Shown here piece by piece: positions 2 to 1,026 of a stretch of DNA of 5,051 bases. The notes below the pieces were generated by a model. That model was not told where the DNA came from, searched no databases, and saw only the letters and a program-made list of their open reading frames with translations. The translations under genes and the position numbers were made by a program. The stretch comes from a virus (lineage: Duplodnaviria > Heunggongvirae > Uroviricota > Caudoviricetes). Every line of letters begins with the position of its first letter. Position 1 is the stretch's first letter. The stretch lies in the IMG/VR virus record IMGVR_UViG_2734482004_000002; one strand, written 5' to 3'.

Positions 2-352
2 CGTCACTGTACGTTGCTCCATGACAGACAGGCATGGAGCAACGACTCCGGTACGGATGAATGGCATAGTTGGGCGCAACATTATGCGGTTAATTTGCCG
101 ACATCTTCTGGAATTGGCTTTGATCGCTCTGATTTAGCCGTTATCGCCGCGATGAATCATATTGGGGTGGCGATGGGAAGGAAACGTCTGGTACAAAAAA
201 GGCTTGCCAGTGGTGAGCTCGTCGCGCCGTTTGGCGATATGACGGTGAAATGCCATCAGCATTATTACATCACTACATTACCGGGCAGGCAGTGGCCAAA
301 AATTGAGGCATTTATTACTTGGTTAAGAGAACAGGTAAAAACCACTTCATAA
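2..352 (+). CDS. dsdC: LysR-family transcriptional regulator, C-terminal effector-binding part only; 5' end lies outside the window. Probably the host gene flanking the prophage.
   Basis: Open frame runs from the window edge (codons in register with 14..352, no upstream stop) to a stop at 350-352. The translated C-terminus is LysR-like by eye. The dsdC name is by locus context only (tRNA-Arg-type att core plus torI-like gene next door, as at the E. coli K-12 argW/KplE1/dsdC locus), not by sequence match. Confidence 0.5.
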   Translation, partial: RHCTLLHDRQAWSNDSGTDEWHSWAQHYAVNLPTSSGIGFDRSDLAVIAAMNHIGVAMGRKRLVQKRLASGELVAPFGDMTVKCHQHYYITTLPGRQWPKIEAFITWLREQVKTTS

Positions 353-450
353 TGAATAAGACCACGAGTTCCTGGTGTGCCTTATTCGGCATTGCTAGTG
401 CGAATTTAATAATTTACGGTTTTTACGTGGTTTTAGGGATAAACACAAGA

Positions 451-466
451 ATGGTGTCCCCTGCAG
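451..466 (-). other. 16-nt tRNA 3'-end segment (T-stem 3' strand, acceptor 3' strand, discriminator, CCA); probable prophage attachment core (attR)
   Basis: Minus strand reads CTGCAGGGGACACCAT: a 7-nt acceptor strand AGGGGAC, A, CCA preceded by CTGC. Not part of an intact tRNA here; the flanking sequence at 467 onward is unrelated. Matches my recollection of the E. coli tRNA-Arg (argW) 3' end. Confidence 0.5.
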
Positions 467-523
467 ACATCTACTTGAGGCGGCAGGGGATTGATTGGAA
501 TGGTGTTTTTTAGATGTGAGAAA

Positions 524-545
524 TATTTTACCCGCTATTTTACCC
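524..545. promoter_or_regulatory. Two 10-bp direct repeats TATTTTACCC (524-533 and 536-545, 12-bp period) between the att core and the excisionase gene; candidate excisionase/integrase arm-type binding sites
   Basis: Exact direct repeat read from the sequence, about one helical turn apart; the second copy overlaps the stop codon of the 540-740 gene. Binding function is inference only. Confidence 0.2.
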
Positions 546-740
546 ATTGGCGCGGCTTAAGAGCTTATTTTTGAATTCACAATGGTCACGATATAACCAT
601 CTTGCTCGCCCGTGGATAACTTTGGCTTTTGGCAGGTCGCCGGACTTAATCCGGTCATAGATGAAGGTTTTACCGAAGCCAGTATCGGCCATGATGAATT
701 TCAAATCAACCAGTGAATCAGGTTGTAGTTCGTGTTGCAT
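540..740 (-). CDS. torI: AlpA/TorI-family excisionase (recombination directionality factor), 66 aa
   Basis: ORF MQHELQPDSLVDLKFIMADTGFGKTFIYDRIKSGDLPKAKVIHGRARWLYRDHCEFKNKLLSRANG has the AlpA-type winged-helix pattern. GGAGA Shine-Dalgarno 9 nt before the ATG at 740. Size and position next to an argW-type att core match KplE1 TorI as I recall it. Confidence 0.7.
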   Translation of the reverse strand: MQHELQPDSLVDLKFIMADTGFGKTFIYDRIKSGDLPKAKVIHGRARWLYRDHCEFKNKLLSRANG

Positions 741-759
741 GAGTGCTATCTCCGAATAG

Positions 760-775
760 GGAATCGAACCTGCAA
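760..775 (-). other. tRNA T-arm fragment (TTGCAGGTTCGATTCC on minus strand), displaced 294 bp from the tRNA 3' end at 451-466
   Basis: Contains the canonical T-loop GGTTCGATTCC. Its 5' T-stem strand GCAGG is exactly complementary to CCTGC formed by joining to the 451-466 segment. Not a functional tRNA on its own. Confidence 0.45.
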
Positions 776-780
776 ATCAG

Positions 781-808
781 GCAATAAAAAACCGCCATCA
801 GGCGGCTT
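781..808 (-). terminator. Rho-independent terminator at the end of the leftward early operon
   Basis: Minus strand GCCGCC-TGAT-GGCGG followed by TTTTTTATT, directly after the stop of the last operon ORF (TGA sits in the loop). Confidence 0.55.
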
Positions 809-1026
809 GGTGTTCTTTCAGTTCTTCAATTCGAATATTAGTTACGTCTGCATGTGCTATCTGCGCCCACAGCATCCAGGGGTCATAGCAGTCGTTGATG
901 TTCTCTGCTTCGATAACTCTGTTGAATGGCTCTCCATTCCATTCACCNNNNNNNNNNGATGTTCTCTGCTTCGATAACTCTGTTGAATGGCTCTCCATTC
1001 CATTCACCTGTGACTCGGAAGTGCAT
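798..1026 (-). CDS. Small hypothetical phage protein, about 55 aa once the duplicated gap is collapsed; reading frame is interrupted by the assembly gap in the given coordinates
   Basis: ATG at 1026-1024 with GGAGA Shine-Dalgarno 7 nt upstream. If 948-1008 (gap plus second repeat copy) is removed, the frame continues as MHFRVTGEWNGEPFNRVIEAENINDCYDPWMLWAQIAHADVTNIRIEELKEHQAA and stops at 798-800 inside the terminator hairpin. A competing 62-aa frame from ATG 1106 exists. Confidence 0.3.
897..1008. repeat. 51-bp exact direct duplication (897-947 and 958-1008) flanking a run of 10 N (948-957); probable scaffold or assembly artifact
   Basis: Both copies read GATGTTCTCTGCTTCGATAACTCTGTTGAATGGCTCTCCATTCCATTCACC. 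Overlapping contig ends joined by N's is the usual cause. Confidence 0.7.

Follow-up and report, generated by a model that had tools for sequence, protein, structure and literature searches.

The window, by which we mean the whole 5,051-nt stretch of DNA that was analysed (IMG/VR record IMGVR_UViG_2734482004_000002), represents one end, attR, of a P22-like prophage of the CUS-3 type, which the IntS/TorI module has integrated in argW. Positions 380–860 are 100% identical to Escherichia coli ATCC 11775/DSM 30083 (NZ_CP033092.2). In this complete genome the prophage spans ~43 kb, with intS and the intact tRNA-Arg(CCU) gene argW at the far end, and its two ends match phage CUS-3 at 100% (2367 nt) and 99.96% (2601 nt) identity. 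Both intS, at attL, and torI, at attR, are oriented as the tRNA. The features around attR, in window positions, are listed below; the remainder of the window is the early-left region of the P22-like prophage.

14–352, plus strand: 3′ end of dsdC, the bacterial flank of attR (open reading frame, annotated dsdC in NZ_CP033092.2)
451–466, minus strand: B, the attR core CTGCAGGGGACACCAT, the last 15 nt of argW plus 1; the real crossover segment
467–539, minus strand: proximal P arm of attR, from the torI stop to the core, holding GGGTAAAA at 533–526
540–740, minus strand: torI, encoding a 66-aa excisionase (recombination directionality factor, RDF); open reading frame, annotated torI
741–759, minus strand: torI leader CTATTCGGAGATAGCACTC with the Shine-Dalgarno sequence GGAG at 753–750; CGGAGAT...ATG is kept across lineages
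760–775, minus strand: A, TTGCAGGTTCGATTCC, equal to argW 46–61 (T-stem 5′ strand, T-loop and CC); direct repeat D8
769–760, minus strand: family-wide core GTTCGATTCC within A, with the TorI-type pentamer GTTCG at 769–765
772–784, minus strand: TTGCCTGATTTGC, annotated in HK620 as the cII binding site of pI (HK620 1689–1701 and 1664–1702, offset +917)
783–808, minus strand: intrinsic-terminator-like hairpin AAGCCGCCTGATGGCGGTTT plus T run, directly upstream of A and shared with lambda 29098–29180

An earlier note on this DNA had called attention to two short minus-strand segments that resemble pieces of one tRNA. Positions 775–760 indeed read TTGCAGGTTCGATTCC (A) and positions 466–451 read CTGCAGGGGACACCAT (B), each occurring once in the window. 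In the same genome argW, identified by ARAGORN as tRNA-Arg with anticodon cct, reads ...GGGCTAATTGCAGGTTCGATTCCTGCAGGGGACACCA and ends in ...CTAATTGCAGGTTCGATTCCTGCAGGGGACACCA. A equals argW 46–61 and B starts at 61; the two segments, both identical to argW, thus abut with a 1-nt overlap while torI lies between them, and joined they give the last 30 nt of the gene. The proposed alignment to argW of the same genome bears this out, as deletion of 466–759 recreates argW 46–75 exactly. Both A and B are exact direct repeats with argW across the prophage (repeats D8 and D6). The match of A to argW is beyond chance: local alignment of argW with the 400 nt left of the core scores 32, and the maximum in 1000 shuffles is 27. 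The 47-kb prophage region does hold further exact repeats of 16–17 nt (D4, D5 and D9), which speak for a fortuitous 16-mer; however, none of them abuts the att core in tRNA coordinates, no shuffle reached the alignment score, and the element recurs in many genera. Coincidence is thereby refuted and keeps a vanishingly small probability, and A is likely to be derived from a tRNA.

The resemblance to a tRNA is restricted to the 3′ 30 nt (argW 46–75), and upstream of A lies the terminator hairpin, not a tRNA 5′ half. The tRNA prediction that the earlier note had suggested came back empty, with ARAGORN calling 0 genes in the sequence with 466–759 deleted as well as in the window, and Rfam matched no tRNA in window 380–900 even at E ≤ 10, returning two sub-threshold sRNA matches only. 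A split tRNA or tRNA pseudogene was rejected, as neither ARAGORN nor Rfam finds a cloverleaf. We also discarded the P′ arm as a further degenerate tRNA 3′ half (316 of 1000 shuffles reach its score). The 294-bp gap between A and B had been described as holding only the excisionase gene and its leader. Both are there, but the P arm of attR lies inside as well, and the gap contains two GGGTAAAA repeats, at 545–538, overlapping the torI stop, and at 533–526. A 50-aa open reading frame (window 395–547, minus strand) runs across the attR core into bacterial DNA. Its counterparts, HK620 hkaB and Sf6 gene 17, cross the attP core in the free phage, so integration alters the C-terminus of the product.

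B (451–466) is the crossover core. It is the 16-nt core of KplE1 (PMC2951348), coincides with the 17-bp att of Kapi1 (PMC8787464) and is annotated as attR, at 450–466, in the phiv205-1 record. Membership of the prophage in the IntS/TorI argW module is evident from the core CTGCAGGGGACACCAT, which is duplicated at both prophage ends with one copy forming the argW 3′ end. In virion genomes (Sf6, HK620, Kapi1, N7 and others) window 450–849 is one contiguous block of ~98% identity, with the order terminator, A, torI, B, int on the tRNA strand. This contiguity argues that the attP structure was brought by the phage and not made at this attR, and it contradicts an insertion at the present site. In the prophage int lies at attL and torI at attR; the crossover therefore took place to the right of torI, at B, and within B we infer the overlap to be TGCAGGG. 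A 135-bp attR extending from the dsdC-side flank to the torI 3′ end recombines in vitro (PMC3509656). As this fragment ends inside the torI 3′ end, it does not include A, which is thus not needed for excision in vitro. A product of recombination between two A copies (argW 5′ part, A, torI) was found in 0 of 5,426 complete E. coli genomes at ≥80% query coverage. We are confident that A is a phage-borne, conserved element that does not serve in crossover.

These data also bear on the idea that A is a second att core, at which the prophage or a nested element recombines with another segment of argW. A is an exact 16-nt direct repeat found in argW and near the other prophage end (D8), and the CUS-3 record (CP000711) annotates it as attL core and as attR core. 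Yet the ends of that record are 99.96–100% identical to the present prophage, whose integrase is annotated IntS, and the CUS-3 integrase gene is 1158 nt long, as in Sf6 and HK620, and lies at the same distance from the core. The record stops at A, hence without torI, and the near-identical phiv205-1 annotates B as attR. Moreover, the virion order A-torI-B-int is incompatible with crossover at A given the order in the prophage, and the sequence following A (CTATTCG) has no overlap region in common with argW (TGCAGGG). With the recombinant expected of A absent from all 5,426 genomes, we consider a second core highly improbable. Two nested cores from successive integrations, which the earlier note had offered as one explanation, likewise find no support in this host: the attR without A works in vitro (PMC3509656), the A × A product is absent and the intS/torI order points to B. 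Nothing is inserted or nested at the present site in this host.

The CUS-3 att-core annotation at A is almost certainly a mis-call, made because argW shares two adjacent 16-nt repeats with the phage. CP000711 is bounded by A (attL core at 1–16, attR core at 40192–40207) and omits torI and the true attR core, which lies about 310 bp further on. The att cores given in GenBank for CUS-3 (A) and phiv205-1 (B) thus conflict, and the evidence favours B. Tools that set prophage boundaries by direct repeats may err likewise at argW.

How A arose is a separate question. The earlier note had proposed that the excisionase cassette was inserted into a tRNA 3′ half. The geometry behind this proposal stands, since A and B abut in tRNA coordinates with torI between them; as an account of ancient origin it fits poorly. 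Outside E. coli, most TorI-type modules have TTCGATGTA as the 9 nt to the left of the core; this stretch is in register with TTCGATTCC of the tRNA, and the shared TGCAGGGGACACCA comes next. There are thus two copies of the T-loop, one in A and one in the core-adjacent remnant, which indicates a partial duplication and not a clean split. Judged from these alignments, an ancient duplication would be a better fit than the splitting of a single tRNA half, and it may have come from a target-site-like repeat or from an old nested event in the phage lineage.

To follow A through related modules, we gathered loci by TorI protein similarity, which reached relatives of at least 62% identity, together with three phage relatives at 76–80% DNA identity. 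The torI gene is present in HK620 and Sf6 at ~98% DNA identity, and HkaC and P18 are given as 100% identical proteins (PMC3509656). The A box is part of the module in E. coli K-12 KplE1 too, a comparison that the earlier note had recommended. The same note held that absence or variability of 760–775 among otherwise identical prophages would suggest a chance sequence; the exact 16-mer is kept in 78 of 83 E. coli loci, but the other five carry single-base variants, and such variants occur at about the same rate as in the rest of the leader. Across several lineages with unrelated DNA upstream, (C)AGGTTCGATTCC is found 19–25 nt before the xis start. Its carriers are E. coli, a Serratia, a Citrobacter, a Pantoea, Edwardsiella, P. 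stewartii and Hafnia. Erwinia phage Midgardsormr38 has the box twice upstream of ORF37, as CAGGTTCGATTCCCGT and CAGGTTCGATTCCCAC, 16 nt apart. In E. coli, Serratia, Citrobacter, Pantoea, Edwardsiella, Hafnia and this Erwinia phage the distance to the start codon is constant at ~19–20 nt. The box was not found in Klebsiella phage Chronis, Erwinia phage EhrS49, Dryocola, Tatumella, Rahnella or a more distant Pantoea set. In Rouxiella and Rahnella (L018, L421, L422) the att core reads TGTAGGGGACACCA where others have TGCAGGGG, which implies a tRNA-Arg with a different T-stem. These two are the only lineages with a different core (TGTAGGGG), and both are without A.

The distribution is bimodal. 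Among the 75 unique leaders of the protein-similarity set, GGTTCGATTCC occurs with 0–1 mismatch in 51 and with ≥4 mismatches in 24, and none has 2–3; these leaders are not phylogenetically independent, so the bimodality could partly reflect recent horizontal spread of one leader. Shuffled leaders give 3–7 mismatches. The invariant part is GTTCGATT(C/T)C, and the T-stem bases drift; the invariant GTTCGATTCC covers the T-loop and two further bases. A lies within a 25-nt cassette, which related modules either contain almost intact or lack cleanly. Leaders without the cassette show an exact 25-nt loss, in which terminator-TTATTGCCTG is joined directly to GAGAT, and natural TTATTGCCTGGAGAT leaders exist. 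A single decayed copy of the box was seen (L364, CCAGATTCCC). As many viable modules are devoid of the box, any function must be dispensable, and the element looks constrained where present, yet dispensable. No genome with contiguous A-B at the phage end was seen among the best 25 matches, all of which were split into two pieces, in a search that joins pieces and may hide a rare contiguous case. A scan of viral contigs with the pattern GGTTCGATTCC-N5-10-GGAG returned mostly real tRNAs.

The box also occurs with a sister Xis family whose proteins begin MRELRDDSLIDMKF and are ~35–40% identical to TorI as judged by eye, not computed. This family (L335–L414, viral contigs) includes Salmonella phage g341c. 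Its arm repeats are GGGCATAA, in contrast to GGGTAAAA of the TorI type, while the core is the same TCTGCAGGGGACACCA. The leader is often that of TorI-type modules and sometimes matches a TorI-type Citrobacter locus base for base, other variants have CAGTTCG, TGTTCG or AAGTTCG ahead of the remaining box, and some leaders are precisely without the 25-nt cassette; the box is also missing from many modules of this family. Leader and xis are swapped as separate mosaic pieces.

Could A be a neutral relic? An ancestral attP core of ≥30 nt identical to argW might have been interrupted by an xis cassette between T-loop and T-stem, leaving A as the stranded, functionless left piece. The exact reconstruction of argW 46–75 from A and B with a 1-nt overlap, the position of A at the left edge of homology between otherwise unrelated phages, the decayed copy in L364 (CCAGATTCCC) and the single-base variants in E. 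coli would all agree with this history. Against it stand the pattern of intact or deleted copies, with 0 intermediates over 75 leaders, and the retention of the T-loop part while the T-stem part drifts. In most relatives TTCGAT stands in register beside the core, so the copy at the core is missing nothing. The insert would also need to carry the whole P arm, and the indel observed in relatives is the 25-nt cassette holding A, not xis. We regard a relic as unlikely and selection on A for a function as probable. On balance, we read A as a phage-borne, conserved, tRNA-derived box in the xis leader whose role is likely regulatory, with a TorI operator and/or a pI element as the leading guess.

The mechanism we find most likely involves TorI itself. 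A heads the xis-attP-int module that the phage carries before it integrates; on the tRNA strand the order is terminator, A, Shine-Dalgarno sequence, torI, P arm, B, P′ arm, intS. A would be an old partial second copy of the T-arm of the target tRNA, i.e. of the left half-site of attB, that has been retained as a cis-regulatory box in the excisionase leader. TorI may bind GTTCG of A; once bound, it would exert feedback on the transcription that reaches torI and intS, be it from pL or from pI, a predicted cII-dependent promoter overlapping A. In attL, a change of GTTCG, GATCG or GTCCG to CAAGC inactivated the five TorI sites, TAAA is the motif common to IntS arm-type sites, and TorI represses PintS through the GTTCG-type sites I4 and I5 (PMC2951348). 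In the KplE1 literature, control of RDF expression is the step that decides excision (PMC2951348). Because TorI already represses PintS via such sites, a TorI operator before torI is the most concrete mechanism available. By sequence pattern, attL of the present genome has five TorI-type sites plus TAAA-type arm sites overlapping PintS, and the five-site layout is kept in the P′ arms of Sf6, HK620, Midgardsormr38, Chronis and EhrS49.

A carries the pentamer GTTCG at 769–765, and 12 nt downstream of it a second canonical pentamer follows in P. stewartii (GTTCG), in Edwardsiella (GTCCG) and in a sister-family locus, L413 (GATCG). We did not find an array of phased candidate TorI sites at A, there being one pentamer in E. 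coli and a second canonical one in these 3 lineages only. The spacing of 12 nt differs from the 10- or 20-nt phasing in attL, and A offers one good pentamer where binding to attL is highly cooperative over five sites (PMC3509656). Besides, a TorI operator would account for GTTCG but not for the equally invariant ATTCC. TorI binding as the function of A is thus a tentative proposal that may well prove wrong. A structured leader RNA is not supported: single-sequence folds differ between lineages, and RNAalifold on 39 unique leaders gave essentially no consensus (-1.3 kcal/mol). An anti-Shine-Dalgarno element and a T-arm-mimic RNA were abandoned as explanations.

A could instead be mainly promoter DNA, namely the second half-site plus spacer of a cII/C1-dependent pI from which, as in lambda, Int would be made without Xis upon lysogenisation. 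Over window 747–785 a 'phage integration' promoter plus cII site is annotated in HK620 and pI in Sf6, the hairpin and first TTGC have their homologue in the DNA directly before the lambda cII box TTGCGTGTAATTGC and xis, and the present prophage encodes a CII-family protein. The candidate, TTGCCTGATTTGC, can be read as TTGC-N5-TTGC or as TTGC-N6-TGCA at the position homologous to the lambda box; its first TTGC (784–781) is common with lambda and its second is the start of A. Yet both annotations are predictions only, the TTGC repeats are spaced by N5, not N6, and a sigma-70 scan detected neither hexamers nor a promoter near A. The candidate site is not conserved beyond E. coli phages, and non-E. 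coli leaders keep GTTCGATTCC without the TTGC repeat; cII therefore cannot explain the conserved core. We rate a primarily promoter role as rather unlikely. The integrase provides a further candidate ligand: because GGTTCGATTCC, the conserved block, stops precisely at the point in argW where the inferred 7-bp overlap TGCAGGG starts, A may mimic the left (B) core-type half-site of attB and be recognised by the IntS core-binding domain, either as a decoy or within a looped attP complex. That the box is kept in two Xis families with different arm repeats (GGGTAAAA and GGGCATAA) and the same core would suit this role. However, core-type binding by lambda Int tends to be weak unless arm contacts are made, the sister family has C sites (GATGTC or GGTGTC) unlike A, and both overlap and core-type sites are putative. 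A is also ~300 bp away from the core, and excision in vitro proceeds without it (PMC3509656). Recognition by IntS is accordingly a distinctly improbable reading. Returning to an operator, a bolder version is that phages targeting tRNA-Arg(CCU) have copied the left half of their attB, the T-loop box GTTCGATTCC, and domesticated it as an operator before the excisionase gene that is read by excisionase and/or integrase. This is speculative and, we believe, probably not the case; if it were, the tRNA T-loop would be the ancestor of the very GTTCG pentamer that TorI-type excisionases recognise.

Comparison with known systems places the locus firmly among its relatives. The IntS-TorI module of KplE1 (CPS-53), HK620, Sf6 and CUS-3 has the same 16-nt core, the same TorI as reported for HK620 and Sf6, the same intS beside argW, an attL with five GTTCG-type TorI sites, and torI beside dsdC as the final gene of the prophage. 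We see no difference, and the present prophage is a member. The A region takes the position that the pI/cII box has in the early-left operon of lambda, from which a promoter would yield Int but no Xis. In contrast to lambda, tRNA-identical sequence stands in place of the second half-site and spacer, the spacing between half-sites is 5 here and 6 in lambda, and attP lies between xis and int here but after int in lambda. Window 783–860 aligns with lambda J02459 29098–29180, the hairpin and flanking ~80 nt being ~96% identical, with the joint of the mosaic located within the cII box.

Some RDFs also regulate transcription of the region they belong to, among them P2 Cox, 186 Apl and P4 Vis. The likeness to these, and to TorI acting on PintS, is that A puts the same pentamer before torI; unlike in those systems, A is a single site or an irregularly spaced pair and not a cooperative array, and it is a candidate site only. 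tRNA 3′ fragments at prophage ends are said to be ordinary att duplications. B is exactly such a duplication and restores the tRNA 3′ end after integration, whereas A is an additional copy, of the neighbouring tRNA segment, which does not recombine, lies ~300 bp into the phage arm and forms a conserved box.

The earlier note knew of no description of this architecture for the argW/KplE1-type site. In part this holds: no paper discussing the split arrangement was found in the literature searched (King et al. 2007, Clark 2001, Casjens 2004 and Panis 2007 lay outside its scope), and a literature search for the 14-mer itself returned no phage paper. The 16-mer is, however, already annotated in the CUS-3, HK620 and Sf6 records, once as att core (CUS-3) and twice inside a predicted pI promoter (HK620 and Sf6). 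A is a conserved box before the excisionase gene of a well-studied phage family, which is ordinary biology with one modest lead. New are the correction of the CUS-3 boundary, the wide occurrence of the GTTCGATTCC box, which many enterobacterial modules share, among them some of the sister Xis family, its intact-or-deleted pattern, and the coincidence of GTTCGATTCC with the published TorI pentamer GTTCG, which is a cheap, testable lead. The understanding of tRNA-targeted integration is unchanged, and the practical value lies in annotation.

Several further features of the prophage were noted. At window 897–1008, 10 N (948–957) separate exact 51-nt copies (897–947 and 958–1008). The 51-nt segment is single-copy in the complete genome and in CUS-3; the duplicate and N run are a scaffold-gap artefact, which breaks a small lambda-like open reading frame. 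In ATCC 11775 the prophage has ISEc12 (IS21 family) before the tailspike gene, and several early genes are frameshifted or truncated (L109 35797–38099 and 1682–3435, NZ_CP033092.2), so that it is probably defective. A long tandem array with a 14-nt scored period occupies L109 41209–41523, at the 5′ end of an acyltransferase gene. The CUS-3 record labels its equivalent the neuO poly-psi heptanucleotide (AAGACTC) repeat, which is a tract for phase variation.
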